Positions 2,000 through 41,000 of a DNA stretch of 42,368 nt are shown here, in pieces (positions within the stretch are counted from its first letter, which is position 1; each line of letters opens with the position of its first letter). A program made the translations under genes and the position numbers. The DNA comes from a virus (Duplodnaviria > Heunggongvirae > Uroviricota > Caudoviricetes): positions 1 to 42,368 of the IMG/VR virus record IMGVR_UViG_2737471817_000007; one strand, written 5' to 3'. The notes under the pieces are model-generated. The model saw only the letters and a list, made by a program, of their open reading frames with translations. It did not search any database and was not told the origin of the DNA.

Positions 2000-2104
2000 T
2001 CAAGGACTTTTTTTGATTTCCCACGCACCTTGCGGTAACGGCAGAAAACCCAACGGAACCCTTTGGGCGCCGCTTTTGAAGCAATTGATTTCAAACCCAT
2101 TCAT
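2000..2104 (-). CDS. Small 34-aa ORF (MNGFEINCFKSGAQRVPLGFLPLPQGAWEIKKSP) downstream of ImmA
   Basis: Strong Shine-Dalgarno (aaggaggtg) 5-6 nt upstream of the ATG; lies between the ImmA stop and the 1913-1936 terminator; below the ORF-track size cutoff. Confidence 0.25.
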   Translation of the reverse strand: MNGFEINCFKSGAQRVPLGFLPLPQGAWEIKKSP

Positions 2105-2222
2105 AAAACACCTCCTTACCAAGAGAGATTTTTCCCTTGAACATCTTCCCTGAAGGTGTTAATTTCAGGCTGTCTATCGAAGCTGTTCACGGTGGTGATG
2201 CCTCTTGGATTCATCACCTAAA

Positions 2223-2259
2223 GCCCCTTGCACTGGTTGGCGCCAAGCAAGGGGTTTTT
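2223..2259. terminator. GC-rich hairpin with T-run at the ImmA 3' end (terminator-like, better formed on the plus strand)
   Basis: gccccttgc ... gcaagggg stem followed by ttttt. Confidence 0.35.
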
Positions 2260-2779
2260 ACATTTTGTCTAGCTGATAACGCGCTGCCACTAATGAAACT
2301 CCGCATGCCTCAGCAACATCCTCAGCCGTCATACCTTTTAAAATACTGGCATGCATAGCTGGCACTAATAACTCACCACTAAAACATTTAGCTTGCCATT
2401 CACTACTCTCAAAAGGGCGGATTTTTACCCCTGGGGCAGAACGAGCAAATGCGATGTTCCTGTGCATAAGAAGATGACCCAGTTCATGCGCGGCAGTCAT
2501 CCTATCTCGCCCTACCCCATTCAAAGCGCCTTCGTAAATGTCTTCGCGCAGAATCAATAAATGTTCCTGTGGGTATGTAAGACCATGCGTCTCTCCCATT
2601 TCTTTCATACCACCAATGTGGAACTCAAAATCCGGGATCAACTGAGGCAATGCGAACTCAATTACCTCCATTACAGGGAATTTAAGCCCAGTAATACCAA
2701 ATGCGCTCCGCAGAGATCTGACGATAGAACGTATTGATTCACGATTCTGCGGAGGTACACGATAATCTTGTCCGCTCAA
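2258..2779 (-). CDS. ImmA/IrrE-family zinc metallopeptidase (COG2856-like)
   Basis: 173 aa with HELGH zinc-binding motif; immediately downstream of an XRE HTH gene in the same operon. Confidence 0.7.
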   Translation of the reverse strand: MSGQDYRVPPQNRESIRSIVRSLRSAFGITGLKFPVMEVIEFALPQLIPDFEFHIGGMKEMGETHGLTYPQEHLLILREDIYEGALNGVGRDRMTAAHELGHLLMHRNIAFARSAPGVKIRPFESSEWQAKCFSGELLVPAMHASILKGMTAEDVAEACGVSLVAARYQLDKM

Positions 2780-2787
2780 GCCGCCTC

Positions 2788-3147
2788 CTACTGCTGTTTT
2801 CGATTCAAAATCTGTCGTAAATTACGGAAGTCTTCTTCATTTAACTCATCAAAACTACGAGCGAACGCAATTGCGACTTCACGAGCGTGGCCATTCTTAC
2901 CTGACAAGCTGATCTCTACTGACTGCTGAGAGTCACGAGCTGCACTGATAAGCTTTTCTTTTTGTTTTTCATCCGCATTAAAATAGCTAATGATGCTATC
3001 AAGCACGGGCTTAGTGACCGCCCTTTTACCAGTTTCGATCGCTGAAAGATAAGACGAGGTCATACCCATAGCCTCAGCCATGCTTTTAAGCGTAAGCCCC
3101 AAGTCTATGCGCATTTTTCTTACTGTCTTACCAAACGGCGTTAACAT
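2788..3147 (-). CDS. XRE-family helix-turn-helix transcriptional regulator
   Basis: 119 aa; LTLKSMAEAMGMTSSYLSAIETGKR is a typical XRE HTH. Confidence 0.7.
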   Translation of the reverse strand: MLTPFGKTVRKMRIDLGLTLKSMAEAMGMTSSYLSAIETGKRAVTKPVLDSIISYFNADEKQKEKLISAARDSQQSVEISLSGKNGHAREVAIAFARSFDELNEEDFRNLRQILNRKQQ

Positions 3148-3327
3148 AGTTGCTTCTCCAGTGTGTCAAAGACCTTCAGTACTTCAGGTCTCATTTTAAG
3201 TTAACACTCCACAGACATGAAATCAACAAAATTCTGTTAATTTTTTTATCTTGCTTAGTTTATGAGTTTACATCTTATGTTGATAGAACTGTTGGTTGGT
3301 GAAGAATCATGGGGAAATGAGTCGTAA

Positions 3328-3483
3328 TCTCTTGATATTTTATGGTATGGAGATGAGTGTCAAAGCTACCATAGCGATGATTTTCCTGTTACCTACACCG
3401 CAGATAAGGATTCTGCTAATGCTTTTGTTCAGGAGACTCTGAAAGATACCTGGGAGTCTGCTGACGAGTGGTTTGTTCATTAA
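3328..3483 (+). pseudogene. Start-less ORF fragment (...[24 protein letters not shown]) ending exactly where hairpin element B begins
   Basis: About 50 codons of protein-like sequence with no in-frame ATG after the upstream stop. Confidence 0.2.
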
Positions 3484-3490
3484 TTAATAC

Positions 3491-3602
3491 GTAAAATCGA
3501 TAACGGCTGGAAATCATTCAATACTCGCACTATCGGAAGTTCACCAGCCAGTCGTAGCACGTTCTTGCATACGACGTGGCTACGGGTTTCGAGACCGACC
3601 CG
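3491..3602. repeat. Hairpin element copy B
   Basis: About 90% identical to copy A; hairpin 3553-3585 has a compensatory stem change (C-G to T-A) relative to A. Confidence 0.7.
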
Positions 3603-3680
3603 ATCATCAAACGAAACATAAAATTAGCTCACATTATGAGGAAAGGTATCTTTTTGCGCTATGTAAATTCAAAGGGTTAG

Positions 3681-4550
<870 letters not shown>

Positions 4551-4570
4551 GTCTTTAAGTGATAAGCATA

Positions 4571-4628
4571 AACCGCAGCACGATCTTCTTGCATACGACG
4601 TGCTACGGTTTCATTTATCTCCGACCGG
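4571..4628. repeat. Hairpin element copy C (core only), overlapping the 3' end of the invertase gene
   Basis: ccgcagcacg-atcttcttgcatacga-cgtgctacgg; left arm is A-type, right arm is B-type. Confidence 0.6.
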
Positions 4629-5165
4629 AAACTTCTTATACAGTGTCGATATACCAACATCATAGATGATCGCCACCTTCTGGCGAGGAACGCCTGATGC
4701 AATTAATCGTCCGGCCTGCTCCCATTGTTCTGGTGTAAGTTTGGGGCGACGTCCACCAATTCGTCCCTGTGCGCGAGCTGCTTCCAGTCCAGCTTTTGTT
4801 CGTTCAACAATCAGTTCACGCTCCATTTCAGCCAGGGCACCCATCACATGAAAGAAAAAGCGCCCCATTGGGGTACTGGTATCAATTGAATCCGTCAGAC
4901 TACGAAAGTTGATGCCTCGTTCGCGCAACTCCTCCACCAGCACGACAAGATGCCGCATACTGCGCCCCAGTCGGTCCAGTTTCCAGACCACCAGCGTGTC
5001 ACCTGCCGATAATGTCCTGAGCAGCTTTTTCAGTCCTGGTCTGTCGGACTTTGTACCGCTTATCTTGTCTTCAAAAATCAGCTTACATCCTGCACAGTTC
5101 AGCGCATTACGTTGTAGATCGGTATTCTGGTCATTTGTTGATACACGTACATAGCCAATAAGCAT
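4611..5165 (-). CDS. Serine recombinase / DNA invertase (Gin/Hin/Pin/Cin family)
   Basis: MLIGYVRVSTNDQNTDLQ N-terminus typical of resolvase/invertase catalytic domains; adjacent to oppositely oriented tail-fibre cassettes; the ORF track begins 12 codons earlier at 5201. Confidence 0.8.
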   Translation of the reverse strand: MLIGYVRVSTNDQNTDLQRNALNCAGCKLIFEDKISGTKSDRPGLKKLLRTLSAGDTLVVWKLDRLGRSMRHLVVLVEELRERGINFRSLTDSIDTSTPMGRFFFHVMGALAEMERELIVERTKAGLEAARAQGRIGGRRPKLTPEQWEQAGRLIASGVPRQKVAIIYDVGISTLYKKFPVGDK

Positions 5166-5166
5166 G

Positions 5167-5194
5167 TTAAATCCCCCTGGCAAAAGCAGGAATG
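5167..5194. other. Candidate left crossover site of the invertible tail-fibre segment
   Basis: aaATCCccctggcaaaagCAGGAAtg shares a ctggcaaa(a)g core, in inverted orientation, with 6963-6992; both copies encode the peptide LAKA. Confidence 0.4.
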
Positions 5195-5581
5195 ATGCCA
5201 TTTGCTTGTTATTTCTTCATTTTCATAAACATTGGTTTGGGAGAATTATCTCTGGCTGGCACTGCATCGGGTGTCATTGGCCTGAATGGGTATGTAACGA
5301 TCCCGTTAATTATTTCAGGTTCCCGGAGAACACTGATTATTCAGTGGGGGCAGGCGAGATTTGGTGGGTCTGGTGGTGAAGATGCCGGATATCTTAACGA
5401 TTTTCCTTTTGCCTTTCCGTCAGCATGTTATGGAATGATAGTTAGTCATGTGGGGCATACACCTTCAGGCGCAGGAATCTTGTCGGCTTCTGCAATTACA
5501 TCAAATCAGTTCCGCGGTTTTTCAAGCATAGCGACTGCTGCAAACGCTGTATTAGGTCGTTATATCGCTATAGGGGTGTAA
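5192..5581 (+). CDS. Alternative tail-fibre C-terminal (receptor-binding) segment, currently in the silent orientation
   Basis: 129-aa ORF opposite to the expressed fibre; same length as the fibre C-terminal part after the LAKA junction; contains an IIQWG motif of the kind seen in side-tail-fibre C-termini. Confidence 0.45.
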   Translation: MMPFACYFFIFINIGLGELSLAGTASGVIGLNGYVTIPLIISGSRRTLIIQWGQARFGGSGGEDAGYLNDFPFAFPSACYGMIVSHVGHTPSGAGILSASAITSNQFRGFSSIATAANAVLGRYIAIGV

Positions 5582-5582
5582 T

Positions 5583-6019
5583 ATGTTTTATAGTCCATCT
5601 TTAAACATTTTTGTGAATCCTGCACTTAAGGATGATTACATTAATGCAAATTCATGGCCAGATGATGCTCTGGCTGTCAGTGATGATGTTTATAATGAAT
5701 TTGCAATCAATACGCCTCCAGATGACAAAATTCGTGTTGCAGGAAAAAATGGATTACCCACATGGCACTAATACCTCCACCATCACATGAAGAACTTATT
5801 CAACAGGCAGAATCAGAAAGGCAATTATTGCTTAATCAGGCCAACGAATACATGAACAGTAAGCAATGGCCCGGTAAAGCCGCTATTGGTCGTCTGAAAG
5901 GTGATGAACTGGCGCAATATAATTTGTGGCTGGATTATCTGGACGCACTGGAGCTGATCGATACTTCCGGTGCGCCAGATATTGAATGGCCTACGCCTCC
6001 GGCAGTTCAGGCCAGATGA
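5583..6019 (+). CDS. Alternative tail-fibre assembly protein (Tfa'), apparently split into two frames near 5762-5771
   Basis: ORFs 5583-5771 and 5762-6019; the second ends with the Tfa signature DTSGAPDIEWP. Confidence 0.4.
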
Positions 6020-6593
6020 CATCCGGCGCTGTGCTGGTATCTGTTGCCGTCACCGCGTCAATGTAATCCAGCACAGCGTTAAGGCGGGTTGTTTCTGCCT
6101 GCGTCAGTTTACGTCCGGCCTGCAATTTCAGTTGAATCAGACTGATGGAAGCCATTGCTGCATCAATCAGTGACTGGCGCTGTGCTTCTGCCGCTTCTAC
6201 TGCGGCACAGTGTTGTGCCTCAGTGTCGGTCACCCATTTCTCACCATCCCATTTATCATATGGCGTTAACGGGGCGATAGTGGTTGTATTTTCTGGATAG
6301 TCGCCTGGTGCTGTGATTTCTTTGGCATCTCCCGTTTCGGTGTTATAGACGATTTCACCGCGATGGTCTGGCACATATTCCCATGAGTTAAAATCTGCAG
6401 AACGGCAGATTGCATAACCAGCTTTGTATGCGCCTGGAGCATCTAAACAGGAACATGCCGGAATACCGACACCCACAGCAAGATATTCAGTTGATGTGAA
6501 AATATATTCCCGTGTTTCACCATCATAGTTATAAACAGTAATATTTCCTGCCTGAGTGGCGATAAATTCGTTATTTAATACGGCGTAATCCAT
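5991..6593 (-). CDS. Tail-fibre assembly protein (Tfa / Mu U-like)
   Basis: 200 aa; C-terminal DTSTAPDVIWPELP motif; directly downstream of the fibre gene. Confidence 0.7.
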   Translation of the reverse strand: MDYAVLNNEFIATQAGNITVYNYDGETREYIFTSTEYLAVGVGIPACSCLDAPGAYKAGYAICRSADFNSWEYVPDHRGEIVYNTETGDAKEITAPGDYPENTTTIAPLTPYDKWDGEKWVTDTEAQHCAAVEAAEAQRQSLIDAAMASISLIQLKLQAGRKLTQAETTRLNAVLDYIDAVTATDTSTAPDVIWPELPEA

Positions 6594-7393
6594 TATGCAG
6601 CCCTCACGATATATGCAAATGCCAAGTTCCGTGGTCTGGTTTCTTTAATTAAAGAGGAGGCATCAGGTGAACTCACTGATTCAGCACCATTTCTTCCACC
6701 AGTGGTATAAGTAAAAACTCTTTCACTGTTAGACCAGTAATCCACACCAACTGTTTTTGCTGATGAAAAAATGGTTTCATCAGATATAACCTGTTCTATT
6801 CCATACGGGATATTAGTAACTGACCCCACTTTTGTAGGTATTCCATGATTATGAGAAATTACTGCATGCTCTTGATTCGTTAATAAAGTACGACCGCTAT
6901 CCACTCCACGCCCGTCATCCCAGCCACGAATAAACTCACCACGTAAATCAGGCAATTTATTTGTCGGATAAGCCTTTGCCAGTTCCGGGTATTCTTCAGC
7001 AGAAAAAGCGGCACCGTTGCATTTCAGCCAGCCTGTTGGCGGAGTGGCGGAAGGCCACGGAACAGGCACGCCAACGGGTAATGCTGAACCTTCTCCCAAA
7101 CCAAGGTTTTCGAGAGCCGTTTTCACCGTGCCATCCGATTTGATATCGCCAAACGGATTCTTGCGGCTTAACAGCAGCGCACGAAGCGCTGTAAGCAGCT
7201 GGTCATGCCGCCCCTTCTCCAGGCTGGCACCGGATGCCTCCACAACACTGCAAAGTTCCTCCTGCAACATGTCAAAGTAGTCATCATCCAGATCGGTGGC
7301 AGGTGTGCCGGTCTGGGGGTTACCACGGGTAAAACCGTTCTTACCCGCGCCGAACTTATCCTTCTGCGCGGTTTTCGTATCTATACGATGCAT
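6593..7393 (-). CDS. Tail fibre protein (constant N-terminal part plus currently expressed variable C-terminus)
   Basis: 266 aa with the conserved fibre motif [22 protein letters not shown]. Confidence 0.7.
6963..6992. other. Candidate right crossover site inside the tail-fibre gene
   Basis: Inverted partial copy of the 5167-5194 core at the LAKA codons. Confidence 0.35.
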
Positions 7394-7981: not shown

Positions 7982-9030
7982 GAAATCGTCCCCAGTACCG
8001 CCAGTTCATTTTTTGCAATGGAGATATTGTCTGCCGGTGCAAGCAACTGATGGCTGTATTCCCCGTTCGCACCGGAAATCGCCTCACTGATACGCGATAC
8101 CTTCAGTTCTCCCTGCGGATAACCATCACGCAGCAGGAACGAACGCAACTCCGCGGTGATGGCAGCCCGTATTTCCGGTGTGTCCGGCGTCACACGGATA
8201 TGAAAATCCACCGTATGTGCCACCGGCCTGAACACATACAAATCAGAGCCTGCCACCGGGGCCAGTGGCTCGATATGTTGTCTTGCCGCCGTTTCCGTTG
8301 ATTCTTCCGGAATGGGATTAATCAGGTCACTGCTGGCAATCATCACACCGACAGTTCCCGTTCCCATCCAGTGACGGTATGTCCATGCGCGGGTAATGCC
8401 GGGCACTTCTTTAGCCCAGACAACATAGTCCCCGTCAGCCCCGCCCTGCGGCGTCCAGTAATACCGCTCAATGACGCGGGCGCGCCACGTTTCCAGCTCT
8501 TCAGTATCAAATCCGCCTGTCAGGGTGTCAGCCACACCGGAAGACGGCAGACCATTCACCGGCGTGACCAGGATTAATGCCGTACCGTCGTCAGCATTAC
8601 CGACCGCACCTGCACTTGAGCAGGCGATCGGCACGCGCAGGACACCACCGGAGCTGGTTGCATCGTCAGTTGTCGTGTACTGCACCAGGTCATCGCGCTG
8701 AATAACACTCCCGGCGGTCACCTTCAGGCCATCGCTGACACCTTCCCAGCGCATATACCCACTGGCAACCGTGGCTCCCTTGCGCGGACACCGTTTCATC
8801 GCAGCATGTCGCGCCAGCCAGGACTCATCGCACAGGTCAGGCAGCATGTTCATTGCCAGATAATCGATGTAACCGTAAACCGTATGCAGCGCCGCCGCAT
8901 ACACCTTTGCCCGCACGTCTTCATCCATGCGCCGGAGCGTGTCGCTGACGTCCAGCCTGGCGAATAAATCGTTACGGAGCATACTAATATTTTCTGCCAG
9001 CGTCGGGCGCTGAAATTCACTGTCCGCCAT
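7972..9030 (-). CDS. Baseplate J-like protein (Mu gp47-like)
   Basis: 352 aa in conserved Mu-type order. Confidence 0.65.
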
Positions 9031-11069: not shown

Positions 11070-12442
11070 TGCACTGGCACCTTCAGAGGGATCACCGGCA
11101 CAAAGCCGGGATGCGTAATGGCATTACGCCGGATAATGTCCGCGTCACGCGCCGCGTTATCAAACCAGGTCGCCGCCAGCACCAGCGCGGGTAAAACCTC
11201 ATCCGGTGTGCGCTGAATGATCCGTGCAGACTGTTCAAGGCGCGTGTTGATATCCGCATTCAGATCTGCTTTCACCCGGCGCAGCGCCAGAAACAGCGCA
11301 TCACTGGTTGTACGGGACAACTCCTTATCAATTGCCGTATTCAGTGTGTCGCGAATGTCAGTCAGTTCTTCCCACGTCGGCAGGTCAACCGTGTTTTTCA
11401 CCGCCGGTGCATTGTTCAGTGCCGGATGCGTGACGGAAGGCCAGCCAGTGCTCTGCGCGGGTGTTGTTGCCTGCCCCACTGCGGAATTCTGCATCACCGC
11501 GGAAGTTATTGGCGCAGGCAATCGGGTGACGGCATACGCCGCTTCGCTGATTGCGGTCGTACGAAGGGTGCTGGCAACCACGTTACGCTGCTGCGTCGCC
11601 GTGGCGGTGGTTTTACTGTCCGTTTTCCAGACGCCGCGCGGTTGCAGATCGCTGCCGAGGCTGACACCGGAAAGCGTTTTGATCATGGTGACCAGGTCGC
11701 TGGCGTTACCATAAAGGCGTTTCCCGGTACGCCACATTTTCTGCACCTGCTCAACGAAATTTTTGCCTGACGATGGCGGCGGCAGAAGTACCGAGATATC
11801 CCCCTGCAACAGCCTGGCGGCATCCGATACGGCAGAATCCACCACTTTCATCGCATCAGAAACATACCCCAGCATTATGCTGGCATTACCGATAACGTCG
11901 TTCTGCACGAAATCCGCCACACCATCGATACTGAAACCGCTGAAGCTGTCACTGATGCAGTCATCCAGTGCAGAACAGGATGACATCAGCGTCTGCGCCG
12001 TCGCCGCACCTGATGTGGGGTAAGAGAGTTCTCCTGCTTCGACAAACTTCAGGTCAAAGCGGACAATACGTCCTTCACTTTTCGATGTGCTGACCCGAAC
12101 TTCCCCGTCAACACAGACTTTCAGCTCACCATATGTCGGGTGGACAAGCGTGCCGGGACCGGGTTTATTCAGCGCTTCAATCAGGCGATCGCGCTGGTCA
12201 AAGCAGTCATCTCCCACCACATAAGCTGTGATGGACGGGCGGAAAGTGACTTTTCCCAGATCTTCGGTATAGGGCTTGTCGCGGTTCGGGTATTCATGTG
12301 TTTCCACACGGCGACCGGTTCCCGCACTTTCTTCTTCAACCTTAAACGGCACGCTGCGAAATGACGCATCCTGAAGCCTGTCTTTCCACGTCATATAAGT
12401 CCCATATTTATTATCAGTAGTAATATTTACTGGTAATGCCAT
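11066..12442 (-). CDS. DNA circulation protein-like tail protein (Mu N / gp43-like)
   Basis: 458 aa between tape measure and baseplate hub. Confidence 0.55.
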   Translation of the reverse strand: MALPVNITTDNKYGTYMTWKDRLQDASFRSVPFKVEEESAGTGRRVETHEYPNRDKPYTEDLGKVTFRPSITAYVVGDDCFDQRDRLIEALNKPGPGTLVHPTYGELKVCVDGEVRVSTSKSEGRIVRFDLKFVEAGELSYPTSGAATAQTLMSSCSALDDCISDSFSGFSIDGVADFVQNDVIGNASIMLGYVSDAMKVVDSAVSDAARLLQGDISVLLPPPSSGKNFVEQVQKMWRTGKRLYGNASDLVTMIKTLSGVSLGSDLQPRGVWKTDSKTTATATQQRNVVASTLRTTAISEAAYAVTRLPAPITSAVMQNSAVGQATTPAQSTGWPSVTHPALNNAPAVKNTVDLPTWEELTDIRDTLNTAIDKELSRTTSDALFLALRRVKADLNADINTRLEQSARIIQRTPDEVLPALVLAATWFDNAARDADIIRRNAITHPGFVPVIPLKVPVQ

Positions 12443-12504
12443 AATTTGTAGTGGTAGCCATTACCATTTGTAACTATATAAATTATTAGCATTAAGGTGA
12501 TAAC

Positions 12505-12951
12505 ATGAAGAAATTATTAAAATGGATTTTATATATTTTCATCGGGTTGGTGATTATTGGATATTTTGCAGGCAATAACGATAAAGGCTCTAATTCTTCA
12601 TACTCATCCGATACGGAAGCTGCGGCACCGCAAAAAGAAATCTACAACACTACTGCTCGACAGCTGTTTAAAGAGTATGAAGAAAATGAAGTCGCTACCG
12701 ATGAACAGTTAAAAGGTAAATTAATCGCCGTTAGAGGTATCGTACAATCCATTGATAAGGACTTTACTGACTCTATAATTATTAAATTCAGAACTGAAAA
12801 TGAATTCATGCCAGCAAGAATGGAGATGCAAGACTCTGAAAAATCAACAGCTGCTGCTCTTAAAAAAGGAGAACAAGTAACTGTTATTTGCGAAAAAATG
12901 TCCAGAATTGTCGGCTCCCCATCAGGCCGAAATTGCGTGTTCGCACAGTAA
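12505..12951 (+). CDS. Membrane-anchored small protein with a possible OB-fold-like domain; low-GC moron inside the tail operon
   Basis: 148 aa; N-terminal hydrophobic helix (MKKLLKWILYIFIGLVIIGYFAG); opposite strand to all flanking tail genes; AT-rich. Confidence 0.55.
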   Translation: MKKLLKWILYIFIGLVIIGYFAGNNDKGSNSSYSSDTEAAAPQKEIYNTTARQLFKEYEENEVATDEQLKGKLIAVRGIVQSIDKDFTDSIIIKFRTENEFMPARMEMQDSEKSTAAALKKGEQVTVICEKMSRIVGSPSGRNCVFAQ

Positions 12952-12983
12952 GTTCAGGGGGGGGCGACCCTCCCTGTTCGTCT

Positions 12984-14816
12984 TTACCTAAATCTGGTGT
13001 ACCCAACATCGTGATTAATATCAATGCCACTGGAACGTGTTTCCGTAACCCGCATACCTGGTGGCATATTCATAAATGAAACCTTGATCTCGCCATCAAC
13101 TTTTGGCGCGATAGCTTTGTTAATCATGAAGGGATTCGGGCCTGTGGCATCGGAGGCGTTGTTTGACTGAGCCGGATCTACCGCCGGATAAGGTGTGTAT
13201 CCCCGCGTCGGTATTCCCGTCCCATAAGCATCATAAGCACCCGCGCCCCACTGCGCAGAGTTAATGGCATCGACCGTGTCACCGGAACTGTCGGTAAACC
13301 ACTCAATAATTGGCTTCAGCTTGTCCCACATATCCTGAAACCACTTAACAACCGGCCCCCAGTTATTGATCACCATCCCCAGCGGCGACCAGGCAAAAAC
13401 TTTCTTAAGGAGTTCCCAGCCAGCCTCAAAATAAGGACCAATGGTTTCCCAGAGTTTCTTAAAATAAGGTCCGACAACATCCCAGTTAGTGATAATTAAT
13501 CCCGCAGCCAGGGCTATCGCCGTCGCAATCATGCCAATCGGCGTCATCGACATGATCCTGCTGACAATACTGATGGCACCGCCAACGCCCATCAATCCCA
13601 GTTTCAGAATCGCAAGACCGGCAGCAAGCCCGACGACGCCGCGAATAACCCGGGGATTTTCATCCGCAAACTTCGTGAATTTTTCCCCCAACTCCCCCAG
13701 CCATTGCGTGATATTTTTAGCGTCACCAGAAAATGCGCCGCCAATAGCTGCAAGACCGTTAGTTGCGGTCCCCGTCATTGCCTCCCACAGGTTGGACAGC
13801 GTACCAAGCTGAGCCTGAACACGTTTATTCAGGCTGGCCTGTTTATTCATCTTCTGCTGGATCTGATCGTAGCCATCCTTTCCTTTATCGATCAGGGCAT
13901 TGACCACCTGAAGGGTTTCGGCATCATCACCAAATATTGCCTTAAGTACGCCTGTTCGCTTAACGTCGGTCAGTTTTCGCAACTTTGCCAGTTGCCTGAA
14001 CATGTTATCAAGACCGCCAAAACTTCCTTTGCCGTCAGTAAAATCGAGCTGTACCCCGAGTTTCTGGCGGGCCATGACTTTATTGACGTCCCTGATTTTC
14101 TTAACACTTAATCCGGACTGGATAACTTTTCGCAGGGCATTACCTGCCGACTCCCCGTTCATCCCCATCTGATCCATCATGACGCTGATGGGGGCAAGGC
14201 TCTGTGCAGCCTGAAGACCGTCCTTGTTCACCATCTTCAGAACAGAACTGGTTTTAGTGAAGAAGGACAACATGTTGGTATCGTCAACGCCCAGATAAAA
14301 CGCCTTCTGGATAGTGTCGAACAGCCCCATCATGTCTTCTGACGCCGTTCCGGTAGCATCCTGCATCTTTGCAGCAAACTCAGCAGCCGCTTCCGGTGTT
14401 TTTTTCAGTTGTACCGCAAGATAAGCTGTCGCTTTACCCACACCACCCAGAATGTTTTCTGCCGGGATCCCCTGACGCACCAGCATCTGCATCATGTTCT
14501 GGAAATCAGCCGTTGTACCGGGTAGCTGGTTACCCAGGCCAATAGCCAGTTTATTGATGTCCTGAAAGCTCTTTCCAACCTCGCCGTTCGCATCCATCAT
14601 GGCGACTTTCAGCCCGGTAGCGGCGTTTTCCTGATCGGCATAAGATTTCAGGGAAAGCGTCAGCCCCGCTGCCAGTCCTCCACCAAGCGCCAGCCCACCC
14701 TGTGACGCTTCTTCCGCCTGGCGTTTAAATCCCCGGATTTTCTTTTGCATTTTCGACAGCGCGGGAGAAAGCCTGTCGACACCGGTGATCAACGCCTTAA
14801 GCTCAAATTCAGCCAT
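12984..14816 (-). CDS. Tail tape measure protein
   Basis: 610 aa, Ala/Gly-rich with hydrophobic segments, downstream of the frameshifted chaperone pair. Confidence 0.75.
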   Translation of the reverse strand: MAEFELKALITGVDRLSPALSKMQKKIRGFKRQAEEASQGGLALGGGLAAGLTLSLKSYADQENAATGLKVAMMDANGEVGKSFQDINKLAIGLGNQLPGTTADFQNMMQMLVRQGIPAENILGGVGKATAYLAVQLKKTPEAAAEFAAKMQDATGTASEDMMGLFDTIQKAFYLGVDDTNMLSFFTKTSSVLKMVNKDGLQAAQSLAPISVMMDQMGMNGESAGNALRKVIQSGLSVKKIRDVNKVMARQKLGVQLDFTDGKGSFGGLDNMFRQLAKLRKLTDVKRTGVLKAIFGDDAETLQVVNALIDKGKDGYDQIQQKMNKQASLNKRVQAQLGTLSNLWEAMTGTATNGLAAIGGAFSGDAKNITQWLGELGEKFTKFADENPRVIRGVVGLAAGLAILKLGLMGVGGAISIVSRIMSMTPIGMIATAIALAAGLIITNWDVVGPYFKKLWETIGPYFEAGWELLKKVFAWSPLGMVINNWGPVVKWFQDMWDKLKPIIEWFTDSSGDTVDAINSAQWGAGAYDAYGTGIPTRGYTPYPAVDPAQSNNASDATGPNPFMINKAIAPKVDGEIKVSFMNMPPGMRVTETRSSGIDINHDVGYTRFR

Positions 14817-15583: not shown

Positions 15584-17079
15584 TATGCGGACTCCTCTGA
15601 ATACTGAAGACGGAACTGGTTAACCACGGCAAAGACACGCAACTGGTTAACATAGTCAGGCGGGAACAGCGTGTTCAGGCGGTTCGGATCGCTGGCATCA
15701 CGCTCCACAACCAGGTACTGCTTAAACAGTTCGTAGTTTTCCACGATCCCCGCACGCTCAAGCTGACGGTAGGTTGCCAGCAGTTCCCCTTTGATCACCG
15801 CCGGGGTGACAATCGCCTGACCGGGACCAAAGCGGGTACCGTCACTGGCAAGCTTGTGACGCCCGTACTTACTGGTAATGACAGATTTCAGTTTGCGCAG
15901 TACATACGCGCTGGTATGCAGAGTCTCACTGTCTAGGTAGCTGTTATCCGCAACCCCGTAAGCGTTTTTCCTGTACGTGGTGACATCACGCTGAATGCGC
16001 AGTACCCCGCTTTCGACATACGCCGTTGCCACGCCATGAGACAGCAGGGTCTGTTGTTCGGTCATCGTGAACCGTTTCCCCTTCGGCGCAGGCAGCATAC
16101 CCACCAGCTCACCGGTCTGCGTGGGACGTGCCGGATCGTTGCGAATAAACACCGCTGCGCGGGCGGTACGGCTTGCCGCCAGTTCGTCGGCAGGCGTCTG
16201 GGTCTCTTTTTCGTACCCCGCCAGGGTAATGTGCTGCTGATTAAACTGGTCACCTGCGGTCACCAGTTCTGACAGCGTGCCGATCTTTGCCGTATACACA
16301 TGACCATACAGCTGACGCGCATAGCTCCAGCGACCGCTGGTATCGTTCATCTCGGTCACCAGCGTGTTAACGGAGGCCGTGTCGTTGAACGGCAGGCCGA
16401 TATAATCAAACGGCTCATCCGCCATTGCAGCCACCGCGCCGGTGAGAACCGGAGCACCCGTACCGGCGGTACCCGTCGCCACGGCAATCTGTACGCCCGC
16501 TGGCAGCACTTCGCCCCCACCAAAGCCGTAGTAATTGAGGCTGACAGGAATTTCATTCCCGCAAAGCCCCTTATGACGCGCGGTCAGTGTGACCACGCCT
16601 GCCGAAGATGAAGCCGTAAACGGCAGGGCCGGAACGGCATTGATGGCATCTTTGATACTGCTGGCAATCGTCGTGACGTTATCGCCGTTGGTCACCGGTG
16701 CCTGCACGCGGGTACGTCCCACATAAACATTCACCGTGCCGGTTTCGGTTGCCGCCCCGGTCACCGTCAGCGTAACCGTTGCCGCCGCGCCTGTGGCTTC
16801 CGGAACGGCAATCACATACAGCTCACCAAACGGGTCGGTCTGGCGATAAGCCTCGACCATACGCGCCAGCTGACTTCCCGCACCACAAATCTGGCGGGCA
16901 TAGTCTGCCGACGGCATCAGCACCAGACTGTTGGCAACAATCTCTGCACCGTTATTGGCATGACCAATCAGCAGCGATGCTCCGCTGTCCTGTGCAGTAT
17001 TCGCCGCCTGGTTATCCATTTCCGCATAAAACAGCGGAACCAGCGTATTCGACGGAATGGTGTTAAAGCTTATCGTCAT
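15583..17079 (-). CDS. Contractile tail sheath protein
   Basis: 498 aa; size, position and composition typical of Mu/P2-type sheath. Confidence 0.75.
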   Translation of the reverse strand: MTISFNTIPSNTLVPLFYAEMDNQAANTAQDSGASLLIGHANNGAEIVANSLVLMPSADYARQICGAGSQLARMVEAYRQTDPFGELYVIAVPEATGAAATVTLTVTGAATETGTVNVYVGRTRVQAPVTNGDNVTTIASSIKDAINAVPALPFTASSSAGVVTLTARHKGLCGNEIPVSLNYYGFGGGEVLPAGVQIAVATGTAGTGAPVLTGAVAAMADEPFDYIGLPFNDTASVNTLVTEMNDTSGRWSYARQLYGHVYTAKIGTLSELVTAGDQFNQQHITLAGYEKETQTPADELAASRTARAAVFIRNDPARPTQTGELVGMLPAPKGKRFTMTEQQTLLSHGVATAYVESGVLRIQRDVTTYRKNAYGVADNSYLDSETLHTSAYVLRKLKSVITSKYGRHKLASDGTRFGPGQAIVTPAVIKGELLATYRQLERAGIVENYELFKQYLVVERDASDPNRLNTLFPPDYVNQLRVFAVVNQFRLQYSEESA

Positions 17080-22545: not shown

Positions 22546-24279
22546 TTAAAGCGAGCGGATCCCGTAGGACTCAATGTGGTCAGACAGCGTGTCTTCTTTC
22601 TCGTACAGCATGGCTCTGCCAACCGCCATAATCAGCGCAACTGCACCATCGATTTTGTTTTCCGCCTGCTCTTTGACGGGCTTCACCACATCATCGTTAC
22701 CCGGAATGGTTTTGCCGACCACGTTGCCGATACACCAGGTCATGATGGGATTGCCATCATGATGAAAGCGCCCCGATTCAATCGCCGCTTCCAGCTCTTT
22801 CATCGGATCGGACATGTTGGTGTAGTTCTGAATGATGGTGACGGGGTTCAGGTCTTCATCAGCAAGGTCATGTGACAGCCCGGTCGCCCCGAAGGGGTCG
22901 ATGGGTGACTCACTGACCGGGCTGATTTTGTTCGCCGCTTTGGCCTCTTCGAGGATGTAGCGATAATCCACCTCCGCACCATCGGTAACGGTCAGAACGC
23001 CCATTTCCACCCATTTCTGAAAGCGTTCGGCTGTCCGGCGATCTTCATTTTTCTCGACGCTGTACACCGTGTCATACGGTACCCAGAAACGCGGGGCCAC
23101 ACTGTAGTAATGCGTTTTACCGTCAATCTCGCGGGTATAAAGTCGCGCCATGCTGTTCATATCCAGCTTACGCGCCAGGTCAAAGGCCAGAATGCACGGC
23201 TGCCCCTCGAACTGCTCAAGGGTCAGTGATTTATCCTCGCAGCTCTGCCAGCTCACCAGGTTGAAATACGCCGAACGCGCCGACACCCAGATATTGAGGT
23301 GTTTTGTTTTAAAGACGTTTGCCAGACGGGCGTTATTTTTCGCACGCTGCTGCTGACTTAACAAAAATTCGCGATAAACCGACACGCCAATATTTGGATT
23401 GGCTTTTTCCAGCACCTGCGGGTCGGTCCAGTCGTCACCTTCATCAACGGTATAGATGATCCCGAACAGTTCATCGTTTGGCACCGAGCCGTTGAGCATC
23501 TCGATGACTTCCCGCCGTTTGTCGTAGCACGGCCCCTCAATGTTGTACCCGGCGGTGGTAATGGCCCACATCAGTGGCTGGCGTCGCGCCCCCATCCCGG
23601 TAAGCATCGTGGTGTAAAGCGCATCTGTGGCGTGCTCGTGATATTCATCCACCACGGCACAGTGGGGTGATGAACCATCACCGGGGTTACCGATCAGCGG
23701 TTCAAACCGCGCACCATCCTCCGGACGGTTCATGTTTGAGGCGTTAACCTCAATCCCGAACGCTTCCGTCAGCATGGGTGTGCGTTTACACATCAGTCGT
23801 GCCGGACGAAAGACTTCCCACGCCTGTTTCTCCGTCGTGGCACCGGAATACACTTCCGCGCCGAACTCGTTATCACAGGCAAAACAATACAGGGCAACAC
23901 CGGCAGAGATTGCCGATTTGCCGTTCTTACGGGGAATTTCGGTATACACCTCCCGGAAGCGGCGCAACCGGGTGCCTTTATTGACCCAGCCAAACGCACA
24001 GCAGATCACAAATAGCTGCCACGGCTCCAGCGTGATGGGCATCCGTTTAAATGCCCACTCACCCTTGGTGTGCGGCAACAGCTGAATAAATTTGGCGGCC
24101 CGTTCAGCCAGGTCCTTGTCGAAGCGGTAACGAAACGACTTACTTTTTTCCGCCATCAGGTCATCAAGATGGCGCTGGCAGGCCTGAATCACAAACTGGC
24201 AGGCAATAATCTTTCCGCGCACGACATCCCGGGCATACTGATTTGCAGCATTTACGTTGGGGTAAGATTTCCGGCTCAT
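22546..24279 (-). CDS. Terminase large subunit
   Basis: 577 aa in the expected position downstream of the small terminase subunit and upstream of portal. Confidence 0.8.
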
Positions 24280-24779
24280 GATTCGATAATTTTCAGAAAC
24301 GGGTTAGTGGCTTTCTTCTTCCCCGCCAGGCCAATCAGACGCTGGCGGCTGCTGGGGTCGAGTCCGAGCATTGCCCCCGTACTGCTCATCTCGGACTCCT
24401 GTTCTTTTTTGGCGGTCAGCTCCGGATTTTTGACCATACCGCCCATTGCACCGGTGATGGTGTTGCCCTGTCTGGCAATATTTTTCACGGCACGTCGCCA
24501 GAACTCGTAGGCCACGCACCACCGCTCAAGCACCACGAGGTCAGTCACGCACAGCAGGCCCTGACCGCAGAGTTCTTTGGTTGTCAGTTGCCACATGATC
24601 GTGGCGAGAGGGAGATCTTCTTCAGCGAACCACTCCGGTGGCTCAACACCTTTGATGGGCGTAAAAACAGGTTCATCTTTATTCAGGGCTCGCTTGCCGG
24701 GGTTTCCGGCCAGCGCCTTGCGCGCCGTTGGCTTGGGGCGACGCCCGGAACGCCCCGCCGTTCCAGCCATATGCGGCAC
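24276..24779 (-). CDS. Terminase small subunit
   Basis: 167 aa, overlapping the terminase large subunit start. Confidence 0.6.
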
Positions 24780-24896
24780 TCCTGGTTAAATTTCATTTTT
24801 CGCGGGTATAAAAAAACGATGGGGCGGGCAGTCCGGAAGGCGCGCGGTCGCAGAGATTTGACCTCCCCCTCCCCAGTCTGATGATGACATTAATTA

Positions 24897-25253
24897 TCAC
24901 TTGAGCCGCTCACGCGCGGTCTTCGCTGCGTGACACGACCAGCACAGGCTTTCAAGGTTGCTGTCTTCATCAGTACCGCCGTGGGCCTTCGCCTTGATGT
25001 GGTCCACGCAGGACGCCTGCTTCACTATCGCCTGCCGTAGATGGTTCTGACACAGCCCTTTGTCGCGCTTAAGTATCCGCTCCCGGATGACTTCCCACTT
25101 TGTTCCGTATCCTCGCTGCTGCCGTGATTGACCAGGCTTGTAGGACTTCCAGCCTTCACCTTTGTGATTTTCACAGTAGCCAGATGGGTCTGTTGTGGTG
25201 TTGCGACAGCCGCGAACACGGCAAGCCTTTGGTGTGCGCGGTGGCATATTCAC
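24897..25253 (-). CDS. HNH endonuclease (packaging-associated)
   Basis: 118 aa with CxxC ... VDHIKAKAHGG ... N ... CWSCH motif, just upstream of the terminase genes. Confidence 0.75.
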   Translation of the reverse strand: MNMPPRTPKACRVRGCRNTTTDPSGYCENHKGEGWKSYKPGQSRQQRGYGTKWEVIRERILKRDKGLCQNHLRQAIVKQASCVDHIKAKAHGGTDEDSNLESLCWSCHAAKTARERLK

Positions 25254-27719: not shown

Positions 27720-27775
27720 TTAGCCCCCTCTTAATTGCTGTTGGTCCTCTCAGAACGAGGGGAAACAAAAAAGGC

Positions 27776-27799
27776 CGCATTAAGGCGGCCTTGGTAAGG
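27776..27799 (-). terminator. Intrinsic terminator downstream of the 27810-28406 moron
   Basis: ggccgc-attaag-gcggcc stem followed by U6 on the minus strand. Confidence 0.6.
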
Positions 27800-27809
27800 T
27801 ATAGTTTTT

Positions 27810-28406
27810 TTAAGATAAACTTTGATTGATATACTCATGACACCCAAAAATAAAGGCGTTTTGTGCATCAATAAATGACTTTTTTTCTTCCGGAGTAAAA
27901 TACCCTTTTGTAAAACATACTTTTAGCGCTTTTTGAAGATCTGCCGTCAGGGTTATCAACTTACAACCTTCCTCATCAGGCCTTATTAATAGAAGTAATT
28001 TATTTTTACTTATTTCAGCGGCCTTTATTGGAACTTGAATCTCCTCAGGGAAAACACCCTTAGCCAATATATCCATATTCTTATTTCCGACCAGATGCCA
28101 TTGCTCAAATGTGCTGGCCAACATAATTACGTCTGTCACATGCTCAGCGCCAGCAAAACGTATTTGTTGCGCCAATTCTTTATTAGTATTCAAGTGAGCC
28201 TGTAATGTGGCTAAGGCAAAATTTTCTTTGATTGCCCTGTATGCAACCCAACCAGTTATTCCTGCGGCAATAACGCCTGCAAGAGCAGTAATGAGTGTTT
28301 CAAAAGGAAAGGAAGAACTGATTTCAATTGGCGGTAATTTTTCTATTACCAAGGTCAACTCGCCAGTAGTTTTTTCGAAAGCGTACGGTACGTTTTGCCA
28401 AGTCAT
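27810..28406 (-). CDS. Low-GC moron protein of unknown function with one internal hydrophobic helix, between Q and the lysis cassette
   Basis: 198 aa; AGGAGG Shine-Dalgarno; terminators on both sides; AT-rich relative to backbone. Confidence 0.6.
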   Translation of the reverse strand: MTWQNVPYAFEKTTGELTLVIEKLPPIEISSSFPFETLITALAGVIAAGITGWVAYRAIKENFALATLQAHLNTNKELAQQIRFAGAEHVTDVIMLASTFEQWHLVGNKNMDILAKGVFPEEIQVPIKAAEISKNKLLLLIRPDEEGCKLITLTADLQKALKVCFTKGYFTPEEKKSFIDAQNAFIFGCHEYINQSLS

Positions 28407-28436
28407 GAAGCCTCCTGAGTTTCAGAGGAATCATAA

Positions 28437-28460
28437 CAAAAAAACCCGCTCAATGGCGGG
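28437..28460 (-). terminator. tR'-like intrinsic terminator just downstream of the Q-like gene
   Basis: cccgc-cattga-gcggg stem followed by U7 on the minus strand. Confidence 0.55.
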
Positions 28461-28512
28461 CTCTTAATGTTGTGTTGCTCAGTTCGCTTTAACGTCCCGA
28501 GCCTACCACAAT

Positions 28513-29091
28513 TTAAGCACTTTCTTGCTCACTCTGCAACTTAAATCTGTCGCTATTTGTGCCGAATGCGTCACAAACTGGAGCGTACAGGATCGATTCT
28601 GCAAGACTTAGCCAAGTGTCAATGCGTCGACGACAGGTGATCAGCGGCCAGTCAGGATGTTTAGCCTGCAGTTCATTGGCCATCTGCAACTTGCTCTTAC
28701 GAAGACGATACCGGTCAACAATCACGCTATAGAGCGATCGGTAGTCATCATTCATCAGTACTGAAGCAATGACACCGTCCACTAACAACCCTTCTTCATC
28801 TGAACAGAACGCCAGGCCGCTTTTATTTTTGCTGTTGAGAATTTCACGCAGGTACGCTTCAAGTTCAGGCTTGGTGATACCCGCTATCTTCATCCGGCGT
28901 AGCGCTTCATTGATAGCTGTCTTGGTGATTTTCCCGGATGCCAGAAGCTGGTTAAACATGTTTCCACCACTACCACCGCCGATATAAGACCAGCGGCCCC
29001 ACATGCGCAACTTGCCTTGTATCCAGATACTTTCCAGAGTACGAAGGCGAACCATTTCACCTGATTTGCCAACTTCAGAAGGATTAATCAT
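28513..29091 (-). CDS. Late-gene antiterminator Q-like protein
   Basis: 192 aa immediately upstream of a terminator and the lysis genes; no clear motif match, call rests on position. Confidence 0.45.
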   Translation of the reverse strand: MINPSEVGKSGEMVRLRTLESIWIQGKLRMWGRWSYIGGGSGGNMFNQLLASGKITKTAINEALRRMKIAGITKPELEAYLREILNSKNKSGLAFCSDEEGLLVDGVIASVLMNDDYRSLYSVIVDRYRLRKSKLQMANELQAKHPDWPLITCRRRIDTWLSLAESILYAPVCDAFGTNSDRFKLQSEQESA

Positions 29092-29105
29092 TTAGCATTC
29101 TCCAC

Positions 29106-34633: not shown

Positions 34634-34664
34634 CGTTCTGTGGTTAAAAATTGAAAGTGTTCTG

Positions 34665-34865
34665 CTAATCTTTCGGATAGATATCCGGTCTTAAGTCAGA
34701 TTTCGTAATTGCACCTGACGTGCATTGCTCAAGTTTTTTAGCCAGCACAAAACTGGCTTTTTTATAGCCATTGAAAACCAGCCGTAAGTAGCCAGGTGTT
34801 GAGCCAACTTTTCCGGCCAACTCGCCCTGCTGTTCTTTGGTTAAAGAGTCCCAATACGCTTTCAT
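34665..34865 (-). CDS. cro: Cro-like repressor (YdaS/Cro HTH family)
   Basis: About 66 aa from MKAYWDSLTKEQQGELAGKVG; divergent from the CI gene across the operator region. Confidence 0.6.
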   Translation of the reverse strand: MKAYWDSLTKEQQGELAGKVGSTPGYLRLVFNGYKKASFVLAKKLEQCTSGAITKSDLRPDIYPKD

Positions 34866-34955
34866 ACAATATGTACCTCCAGTGTACATATTACATGATT
34901 AAAATGAACCTTCAAGATACTTGTACCTTAACGGTACAAGGGTTTTAATTTCGTT
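34866..34955. promoter_or_regulatory. Immunity switch: divergent promoters with palindromic operators
   Basis: atatgtac-N7-gtacatat (about 34869-34891) and cttgtacc-N5-ggtacaag (about 34919-34939). Confidence 0.55.
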
Positions 34956-35630
34956 ATGAAAACAATCCATGACATCCGGCGGTCTAACGCCAGAAAACTG
35001 AGAGATGGTGTTGGCGGGAATTCTTCCTTTGCCACTATGATTGATCGCGAGCCAACCCAGACCAGCAGGTTTATGGGAGATGGTGCTACTAAAAATATCG
35101 GTGACAGCATGGCACGACACATCGAAAAATGTTTCGACCTGCCTGTTGGATGGCTCGATCAAGAACACCAGACAACGAACATCACAAAAAAACCTGATGT
35201 TTCAATCACTAATAAACAAATCACATTAGTCCCTGTCATATCATGGGTACAGGCCGGAGCATGGAAAGAAGTTGGATATTCTGAGGTTGATTTGAGCACA
35301 GCAGAAACGTATCCCTGCCCTGTACCCTGTGGGGAAATGACTTATATCTTGCGGGTGATAGGTGATTCAATGATTGATGAGTACCGCCCGGGAGACATGA
35401 TTTTTGTCGATCCTGAAGTACCAGCCTGCCACGGTGACGACGTTATTGCATTGATGCACGATACAGGTGAAACCACCTTCAAAAGGTTGATAGAAGATGG
35501 GACACAGCGTTATCTCAAAGCGTTAAACCCAAACTGGCCTGAGCCTTACATTAAGATCAACGGTAATTGCTCTATAATTGGAACTGTGATTTTCTCAGGA
35601 AAACCAAGAAGATACAAAATCAAAGCCTAA
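34956..35630 (+). CDS. cI: CI-type prophage repressor (HTH + S24 LexA-like peptidase domain)
   Basis: 224 aa; C-terminal GDSM ... FKRL Ser/Lys dyad region typical of S24 autoproteolytic repressors. Confidence 0.75.
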   Translation: MKTIHDIRRSNARKLRDGVGGNSSFATMIDREPTQTSRFMGDGATKNIGDSMARHIEKCFDLPVGWLDQEHQTTNITKKPDVSITNKQITLVPVISWVQAGAWKEVGYSEVDLSTAETYPCPVPCGEMTYILRVIGDSMIDEYRPGDMIFVDPEVPACHGDDVIALMHDTGETTFKRLIEDGTQRYLKALNPNWPEPYIKINGNCSIIGTVIFSGKPRRYKIKA

Positions 35631-35642
35631 TCAATGTTTATG

Positions 35643-35665
35643 AACCTGCTTCGGCAGGTTTTTTT
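35643..35665 (+). terminator. Intrinsic terminator after the repressor gene
   Basis: cctgc-ttcg-gcagg stem plus T7. Confidence 0.6.
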
Positions 35666-35669
35666 ATAC

Positions 35670-35706
35670 TTGACAATGTACCCATGAGATACATAATGTA
35701 CCCAAG
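35670..35706 (+). promoter_or_regulatory. PL-like early-left promoter with overlapping TGTACCC operator repeats
   Basis: TTGACA, 16-17 bp spacer, cATAATg; tgtaccca repeated across the spacer and downstream. Confidence 0.5.
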
Positions 35707-35786
35707 AGAAACAACGAACAGGCAGGACGCCCACGAAGTAGCCGCCTGGGGCATATAAAGTCTAGGGTGATTCGTTAGCAACAAAA

Positions 35787-35819
35787 AAGCGCCCTACAGG
35801 ACGCTTAGCTCTTTAACAA
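35787..35819 (+). promoter_or_regulatory. Hairpin plus rrn-type boxA (GCTCTTTAACAA): candidate antitermination (nut-like) site
   Basis: 35808-35819 is identical to the ribosomal-operon boxA core; preceded by a short stem-loop as in rrn leaders. Confidence 0.45.
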
Positions 35820-35864
35820 TCTGGTCCCCATCAACAAGTAACTGATAACTTGAGGAGGTGTGAA

Positions 35865-36071
35865 ATGCACAAAACAGAACCCACAATCGTCGCGCCCGGA
35901 TACACAAATGAGGAAATTTACGAGTGGATGGCAAAGAAGCTGGCAGCTATAAACCAGCTTCGTGAAGTGCTGTCTTATCGACAGGAAACAATAGACTCCT
36001 TAAAAAAACTGGATCAGGAAATCACGGTTTTATCACAGGATGTTACTTTAGATATTGTGCAGACAAATTAG
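35865..36071 (+). CDS. Hypothetical first early-left protein (about 68 aa)
   Basis: GAGGAGG Shine-Dalgarno 5 nt before the ATG at 35865; the ORF track starts at 35850. Confidence 0.4.
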   Translation: MHKTEPTIVAPGYTNEEIYEWMAKKLAAINQLREVLSYRQETIDSLKKLDQEITVLSQDVTLDIVQTN

Positions 36072-36477
36072 GATCCCATTCATTTTCGTCAAAATCATCA
36101 AAGTGATGAATTTGTGATCTCCAGTCTCGATAATCTAAAAATTTCTGGGCGGTTACGCTTATTTTATCAAGTGTGAGTTCATCCTGAATTGAAAGAAGAA
36201 GTTCATCAAATTTCATCTCATTAATCTGTTTTGGCATCCAGTGATGCTTCATCAGAATAAGGTGAACCAGAGCCTTTTTCCCATTCAACTGATTATAGGG
36301 AGTGCCGAATTTCTTCCGGTGCTCATGTAAGACAAGGTCCAGAAGAGTAAGTAATGTTGCCCTTGATTCCACTTTGCTTATTTCGACTGATGACACTACC
36401 CCACTGATTTCAATGCCCCGATACTTTCCAACATTTTCACAGTGGGATTTGTACAGCGTGTAGATATTACCGGACAT
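36043..36477 (-). CDS. Low-GC moron protein of unknown function, antisense to the early-left operon
   Basis: 144 aa; AT-rich; own Shine-Dalgarno; direct repeats in its upstream region. Confidence 0.55.
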   Translation of the reverse strand: MSGNIYTLYKSHCENVGKYRGIEISGVVSSVEISKVESRATLLTLLDLVLHEHRKKFGTPYNQLNGKKALVHLILMKHHWMPKQINEMKFDELLLSIQDELTLDKISVTAQKFLDYRDWRSQIHHFDDFDENEWDPNLSAQYLK

Positions 36478-36619
36478 TTCTTTTCCTTTTGCGTTGTTGG
36501 GGATAACCAGATTAACCGAATCCTTGTTGTTGGGGAATAACCAGGTCCACCTCGCCTGATGTGGCTAAAAGCAGGCACATAACAGCTAAGTATTTTTAAC
36601 CAGAGAGAATCCTTAGCGT

Positions 36620-40910: not shown

Positions 40911-40969
40911 CTTATTGATTTAAATGGTGCCGATAATAGGAGTCGAACCTACGACCTTCGCATTACGAA
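40903..40969. repeat. attR: phage/tRNA junction copy of the attachment repeat
   Basis: Matches 104-170; lies inside the tRNA 3' half. Confidence 0.75.
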
Positions 40970-41000
40970 TGCGCTGCTCTACCAACTGAGCTATATCGGC
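40925..41000 (-). tRNA. thrW: tRNA-Thr (anticodon CGU)
   Basis: Reverse complement reads GCCGATATAGCTCAGTTGGTAGAGCAGCGCATTCGTAATGCGAAGGTCGTAGGTTCGACTCCTATTATCGGCACCA: cloverleaf with CGT anticodon and CCA end. Confidence 0.85.

Follow-up and report, generated by a model that had tools for sequence, protein, structure and literature searches.

A probable SfV-family cohesive-end site between the HNH endonuclease and small terminase genes of an Escherichia coli prophage

The window analyzed here, a stretch of 42,368 nucleotides that spans positions 1 to 42,368 of the IMG/VR record IMGVR_UViG_2737471817_000007, wholly contains a prophage unit genome of ~40.8 kb, which is comparable in size to the genomes of SfII (41.5 kb) and SfIV (39.8 kb). 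The unit is bounded by a 40-bp exact direct repeat (att) at 132-171 and 40931-40970, and the second copy lies inside a tRNA-Thr(CGU) gene (40925-41000, minus strand) beside proA, where phages of the SfV family integrate (PMC3636060). Full-length open reading frames are present for the integrase, portal, protease, capsid, sheath, tape-measure and baseplate proteins, as well as for the small terminase (TerS), the large terminase (TerL) and an HNH endonuclease; the tape-measure frame, at 12984-14816, is intact and encodes 610 aa. On the minus strand, the lysis genes are followed by the HNH gene, a gap, terS and terL, with these coordinates:

24897-25247, minus strand: HNH endonuclease gene, 116-118 aa, with an ATG at 25247 and a frame extendable to a GTG at 25253
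24276-24783, minus strand: Shine-Dalgarno sequence AGGAG (24779-24783) and terS, with its ATG at 24770 and its stop at 24276
22546-24279, minus strand: terL, large terminase gene, 577 aa, with Pfam TerL_ATPase and TerL_nuclease domains

The HNH protein belongs to Pfam PF01844 (E=2e-10), has the HNH endonuclease 5H0M as its top PDB match (E=5e-10) and is 30% identical to gp74 of phage HK97 (E=5e-6), on which grounds we regard its gene as packaging-associated and as the counterpart of that of HK97 gp74. In an E. coli locus with 100% identity to the window over the gap, an HNH gene of 351 nt is likewise annotated by PGAP. TerL is similarly related to HK97, with 26% BLASTP identity to gp2 over 522 aligned columns (E=5e-30) and the HK97 TerL structure 6Z6D as its sole PDB sequence match (E=2.7e-25), and it is 97-100% identical to TerL of the SfV-family phages. 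TerS, a protein of 164 aa, is 97-99% identical to its SfV-family counterparts and falls into the P27/Terminase_4 family (Pfam PF05119, E=1e-20); a single-sequence AlphaFold model of it reached a pLDDT of 39, too low to be of use.

The space between the HNH and terS genes had been proposed in a preliminary description as a possible packaging (cos) region, described as a GC-rich, non-coding gap of 117 bp in which no specific site could be identified. The gap itself exists, and its upper boundary is given by the HNH stop codon TGA at 24897-24899. Its lower boundary of 24780, however, derives from a GTG at 24779, while terS starts at the ATG at 24770 both in SfV orf1 and in the PGAP annotation of the identical E. 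coli locus, 8 nt downstream of the AGGAG. Since terS begins at this ATG, the gap extends from 24771 to 24896 and measures 126 bp rather than 117. As a whole, it is also not GC-rich: its GC content of 50.4% compares with a window mean of 50.6% and corresponds to the 41st percentile among all 117-nt windows of the stretch. Only the central 54 bp are rich in GC, as seen when the gap is divided into three parts:

24875-24896: part on the HNH side, 27% GC
24821-24874: central part, 74% GC
24771-24820: part on the terS side, 38% GC

The description as non-coding, on the other hand, is borne out, given that the identical E. coli locus has no annotated gene in the gap, that an Rfam scan of the gap returned zero family matches and that a consensus terminator scan of it predicted none. 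The sole open reading frame touching the gap (24588-24881, plus strand) runs antisense to terS. The gap might instead be a mere translational or transcriptional spacer that carries the terS ribosome binding site and perhaps a promoter or terminator, with the packaging site located elsewhere. The terS Shine-Dalgarno sequence does lie inside the gap, and a single weak sigma-70-like match is found at 24858-24885; this match, however, is on the plus (non-coding) strand and at chance level (1 found against 0.5 expected), and the missing terminator speaks against such a role as well. Two further observations given below, the position of mapped phage ends and the spacing of the most conserved block, make a mere spacer very improbable.

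A megablast search against phage records connected the region to the Shigella flexneri serotype-converting phages SfV, SfI, SfII and SfIV, to Salmonella phage ST64B and to related E. coli and Klebsiella phages, and several of the matched records start or stop inside the gap. On the minus strand, positions 24834-24817 read GGAC-TGCCCGCCCC-ATCG. The termini of SfI virion DNA have been sequenced directly by run-off, and 10 nt, 5'-TGCCCGCCCC-3', that were missing relative to the prophage were taken as its cos (PMC3636060). The window 10-mer at 24821-24830 is an exact match to these missing nucleotides, so that the mapped SfI ends fall within the sequence of the gap. In agreement with this position, the SfI GenBank record ends in ...GGACTGCCCGCCCC / ...TTCCGGACTGCCCGCCCC, closing with TGCCCGCCCC, and its first base is the counterpart of window position 24820; the published SfI primer cos-R, GGCTTGGGGCGACGCCCGGA, has an exact match on the plus strand at 24730-24749. 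The first base of the SfV record, the counterpart of 24837, lies 7 nt upstream of the SfI 10-mer, and from this base to the end of terS the window shows 5 mismatches in 562 nt, with none in the first 234 nt. SfI, SfII, SfIV and SfV are said to have a common cos (PMC3851460).

The hallmarks of an SfV/SfI-family cos are thus present in the gap and its surroundings, namely GGAC followed by TGCCCGCCCC, the flanking sequence and the terminase genes. Contrary to the view that no specific site could be recognized, the window contains a single copy of the full composite motif and a single copy of the 10-mer TGCCCGCCCC, both inside the gap and on the coding strand. Because of this exact and single 10-mer and the identity with SfV, the earlier packaging inference is correct and the site, whose core is homologous base for base to the cos of SfV, SfI, SfII and SfIV, can be located with single-base precision. 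In common with these four phages, the window has TGCCCGCCCC, an identical sequence from GGAC up to nucleotide 234 of the SfV record, the gene order HNH-cos-terS-terL and integration at tRNA-Thr beside proA. Taken together, the gap is very probably, as judged from the sequence, the cos of a myovirus prophage that belongs to the SfV family, resides in E. coli and appears to be intact.

There are nonetheless differences from these phages. The host of the window prophage is E. coli, unlike the Shigella flexneri host of SfI, SfV, SfII and SfIV, and the base at +1 is an A in the window and in SfV, whereas it is a G in SfI. The remaining differences lie left of GGAC: the G-rich box reads GGGGAGGGGGAGG in the window and GGGGAGGGGCGGG in the SfV lineage, the following spacer is the minority variant GCGACCGCGCGCC as opposed to GTGACCTGACGTC, and the HNH protein is ~75-81% identical to that of the SfV lineage. 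Given that the sequence from TTCCGGAC rightwards is identical to SfV while the left half is diverged, a recombination boundary appears to lie inside cos, immediately left of GGAC. The variant of G-rich box and spacer (24835-24874) travels with the diverged HNH lineage (24897-25247), and no isolated phage with mapped ends was found to carry this left-half variant (GGGGAGGGGGAGG plus GCGACCGCGCGCC with the diverged HNH).

To resolve the anatomy of the site, we compared the regions upstream of terS in species-representative genomes, whose loci were picked by TerS peptide words and not by any DNA motif. This sample comprises 38 distinct upstream regions with TerS proteins 51-99% identical to that of the window, from hosts that include Xenorhabdus, Photorhabdus, Morganella, Gilliamella, Serratia, Citrobacter and Cupriavidus; a search of viral contigs with TerS returned only relatives that are 97-99% identical and was informative for the left half alone. 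Alignment of the 38 regions revealed four conserved blocks separated by variable segments of constant length. Listed in the direction of the minus strand, and with the cut placed by homology, the elements are the following:

24875-24896, minus strand: AT-rich linker after the HNH stop, poorly conserved, mean information 0.67 bits
24862-24874, minus strand: G-rich box GGGGAGGGGGAGG, the upstream conserved cos element, mean information 1.33 bits
24852-24861, minus strand: TCAAATC(TCT) box TCAAATCTCT, adjoining the G-rich box, mean information 1.62 bits
24835-24851, minus strand: spacer of variable sequence and fixed length, mean information 0.61 bits
24831-24834, minus strand: GGAC, directly 5' of the putative cohesive end, mean information 1.70 bits, with an invariant AC
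24821-24830, minus strand: putative cohesive-end 10-mer TGCCCGCCCC (plus strand GGGGCGGGCA), mean information 1.20 bits
24788-24820, minus strand: predicted first-packaged side, +1 to +33
24815-24820, minus strand: +1 to +6, variable, mean information 0.64 bits
24788-24814, minus strand: +7 to +33, almost invariant block TTTTTATACCCGCGAAAAATGAAATTT, mean information 1.77 bits

Between the G-rich box and the right-hand block, the only change in length is a 1-nt insertion in one of the 38 sequences. Within the 10-mer, conservation is confined to the 5' half, and the 3' half varies. The right-hand block contains CCGCGAAA, which shows no variation even in the relatives with the least similar TerS (51% identity). 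The block lies at a constant distance from the cut, whereas between 30 and 102 nt separate it from the terS ATG, owing to inserts in Xenorhabdus, Photorhabdus and Morganella. With its spacing fixed to the cut and not to the ATG, the block is part of cos and not a translation signal, and this counts against a mere spacer in the same way as the mapped SfI ends do. By analogy, TTTTTATACCCGCGAAAAATGAAATTT (24788-24814) is a candidate for the binding site of the small terminase, equivalent to cosB.

The core of the right-hand block, the 8-mer TACCCGCG, is overrepresented in the window, where it occurs 6 times against 0.98 expected and a maximum of 3 in dinucleotide shuffles:

7342-7349, plus strand: TACCCGCG
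8388-8395, minus strand: TACCCGCG
11186-11193, minus strand: TACCCGCG
16707-16714, minus strand: TACCCGCG
23130-23137, minus strand: TACCCGCG
24801-24808, minus strand: TACCCGCG, the copy in cos

We considered the five copies outside cos as extra terminase sites and rejected them, as they lie inside genes and have no flanking A/T tracts; the excess is probably a codon-related chance effect.

A second point of reference is phage HK97, in which the DNA has 10-nt 3' overhangs and the HNH protein gp74 stimulates the cutting of cos by TerL (PMC9410871, PMC11331095). The Discussion of PMC9410871 assigns 10-nt 5' overhangs to lambda and 12-nt 3' overhangs to HK97, which contradicts both its own Figure 1 legend and PMC11331095, and the numbers in that Discussion appear to be swapped. 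When the ends of the HK97 record are joined, the sequence reads GGGGGGGGGATCAAATC-21 nt-GAC-CGCCGCCAAA|GTTTGAATTTAACGCTAACCCGATTTTTTT. Base 1 of this record corresponds to the +1 position of Chechik et al., since their T16, C:G 21 and A-tract 24-29 fit the record numbering. HK97 itself has the HNH-cos-terS layout, so the HK97-type placement that the preliminary description had invoked is confirmed. Beyond this position, HK97 and the window have in common homologous TerL and HNH proteins and, at the DNA level, a G-rich box followed by TCAAATC, 21 nt, GAC and a GC-rich 10-mer at the genome end. The G-rich box is also found in Klebsiella phages, and TCAAATC (24855-24861 in the window) lies exactly 21 nt upstream of GAC in the window, in SfV, in a Klebsiella phage and in HK97 alike.

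There are also differences from HK97. The 10-mers are not the same (TGCCCGCCCC in the window, CGCCGCCAAA in HK97), and the right halves are unrelated except for an ACCCG beside an A/T tract at a similar distance from the cut, which occupies +14 to +25 in the window (ACCCGCG, 24801-24807, plus A5) and +18 to +30 in HK97 and is thus 4 nt nearer to the cut in the window. In HK97, the TerS binding site is CTAACCCGATTTTTT at +15 to +29 (PMC11331095). The HK97 small terminase gp1, an arginine-clamp TerS, is not detectably related to the P27/Terminase_4 protein of the window: the comparison of the two gave a BLASTP E value of 7 and an hhalign probability of 0.1%, and gp1 has no Pfam family hit, as opposed to PF05119 for the window TerS. 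Because the two proteins are unrelated in sequence, the binding mode of the HK97 TerS is not simply transferable. When compared with HK97 as a type, the window therefore has cos in the HNH-cos-terS position and a gp2-homologous TerL, and it lacks a TerS with detectable homology to gp1; it also has the left-half motif, whose use as a mark of HK97-type sites is an operational definition of this analysis and not a published one.

The occurrence of this left half was surveyed by scanning IMG/VR with the pattern GG-N5-TCAAATC-N21-GAC-N-GCC, which returned 81 sites and is circular with respect to the spacing fixed in the pattern, so that independent evidence for the spacing comes from HK97 and from the TerS-selected sample. 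The G-rich box, as a feature outside the search pattern, was recovered in most sites: in 76 of the 81, 8 or more of the 12 nt that precede TCAAATC are G. Nearly all sites with enough flanking sequence lie downstream of an HNH homologue and have a terS or terL homologue on the other side. By their right halves, the sites divide into an SfV type, an HK97 type, a 'CCTTTTTTCACACCGCCGCAGGTTAGAAAAC' type, whose TerS is 27-33% identical to that of the window, and other, rarer types. We also looked for a third lineage with mapped ends in the 'CGCCGCCTAA CCTTTTTTCACACC' class; the phage records that match it are prophage-derived, and none of them starts or ends at the site.

The left module is present in HK97 and the SfV family as well as in a number of further enterobacterial phage lineages, with small terminases that are unrelated or show no more than 27-33% identity. 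Given that the site classes differ in their right halves, the left half of cos is associated with the conserved TerL/HNH pair, whereas the right half follows the TerS family. It is tempting to speculate that the G-rich box and TCAAATC, placed 21 nt upstream of GAC and the 10-mer, constitute a distinct cos subsite and that HK97-type cos sites are modular, with a conserved left module read by TerL/HNH and an exchangeable right module read by the TerS family of the phage in question, an idea that we put forward tentatively and consider somewhat more doubtful than not. Under this modular reading, the left module may be a termination or nick-positioning element similar to cosQ of lambda. No earlier description of the G-box/TCAAATC element was found in the literature searched, to which Juhala 2000, Allison 2002 and Kala 2014 did not belong, and the modular left half of fixed spacing in common with HK97 is the sole mildly new point of this analysis.

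The analogy with lambda raises the question of whether packaging could instead follow a different scheme altogether, be it from a lambda-type cos with 12-nt 5' ends or by a headful (pac) mechanism. The lambda cos (cosQ-cosN-cosB) has 12-nt 5' overhangs, a Nu1-type TerS and IHF sites, and operates without an HNH protein. In its general plan the site in the gap may resemble it, as both would combine a nicking site with a downstream binding region for the small terminase and an upstream conserved element that is packaged last (cosQ). However, none of the lambda features cosN, Nu1-type TerS and IHF site was found in the window: the TerS belongs to PF05119 and is not Nu1-like, lambda cosN (GGGCGGCGACCT, allowing ≤2 mismatches) matches in the window at the chance rate and has no match in the gap, and the IHF consensus WATCAANNNNTTR does not occur in 24650-24960. 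As for headful packaging, it is used by the serotype-converting Shigella phages Sf6 and SfX (PMC3851460), but SfI virion DNA has defined ends, and the presence of an HK97-like TerL and an HNH gene argues against both schemes. We therefore consider headful packaging or a lambda-type cos extremely improbable here.

A different concern is that the gap could be a cos by descent that is no longer used, i.e., an uncut relic in a cryptic or defective prophage. Many E. coli prophages are defective, and of 5426 complete E. coli genomes, 1098 (about a fifth) contain sequences that match the gap, mostly in unstudied prophages. In one relative, a prophage of E. coli KSC1031 that has a matching integration site and shows 97-99% identity to the window element over most of its length, the tape-measure gene is frameshifted and the tail-fibre gene truncated. 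In the window, by contrast, the tape-measure gene is intact, the integrase, portal, protease, capsid, sheath, terS, terL and HNH genes are full length, both att repeats are retained and the cos core does not differ from that of viable phages. An abandoned site is thus unlikely, and we retain the interpretation as the cos of an apparently intact prophage. Since the virion-end mapping concerns SfI and not this prophage, its activity and the positions of its ends are assigned by homology.

The alignment with KSC1031 left four segments of the window without a megablast match, which we interpret as mosaic replacements at four places: 1-7100, the tail-fibre/accessory end; 12398-12984, near the end of the tape-measure gene; 27756-29097, between the antiterminator and lysis genes; and 34646-36546, in the immunity region.

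On the assumption that the site works as its homologues do, packaging could proceed as follows. After excision and concatemer formation, the P27-family TerS would bind the A/T-tract/ACCCGCG block at 24788-24814, downstream of the cut, and thereby position the HK97-like TerL at this block. TerL and the adjacent HNH protein would then introduce nicks 10 nt apart, in the minus strand presumably between 24821 and 24820 and in the plus strand presumably between 24830 and 24831, leaving 10-nt 3' cohesive ends composed of TGCCCGCCCC and its complement. Packaging would start at 24820 and run towards terS, terL and the head and tail genes until it stops at the next cos, so that the lysis genes, the HNH gene, the G-box/TCAAATC element and the 10-mer would enter last. 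Under this scheme, and by analogy with lambda cosQ, the G-rich box would most likely help to position TerL/HNH or act in termination.

The polarity of the ends follows from the way in which the SfI termini were read. A run-off read directed outward terminates where its template strand has its 5' end, and run-off reads from both ends miss the overhang only when it is a 3' extension. We thus infer 3' polarity from this run-off logic together with the example of HK97, and the length of 10 nt from SfI.

As the cos of the SfV/SfI phage family and of the HK97 kind, the site is of an already known sort, real but ordinary, and the result leaves current understanding unchanged. Its practical value is that it fixes the genome ends and the packaging mode for a prophage type found in about one in five complete E. 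coli genomes, which is of use for prophage annotation, for choosing the start coordinate of phage records and for predicting transduction, given that cos packaging implies little generalized transduction. As a by-product, the comparison nominates specific bases for mutation, which may serve research on HK97 packaging.

Another observation concerns a second viral contig, L173 (IMGVR_UViG_2547132270_000003), which at 5306-5347 on the minus strand carries a complete cos-like module of the form G-box-TCAAATC-21 nt-GAC-TGCCCGCCCC-ATCGATTTTTTATACCCGCGAAAAATGAAAA; sites similar to it are present in three further contigs (L136, L116 and L170). No HNH, terS or terL gene was found within -1.5/+3 kb of the L173 module, which lies near an open reading frame with a Phage_Nu1 C-terminal domain and adjoins the host genes clpS/clpA. 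The contig could thus represent a PICI-like satellite whose cos allows its packaging by SfV-type helper phages; the cos sites of known E. coli PICIs are lambda/80-like (PMC6739421).
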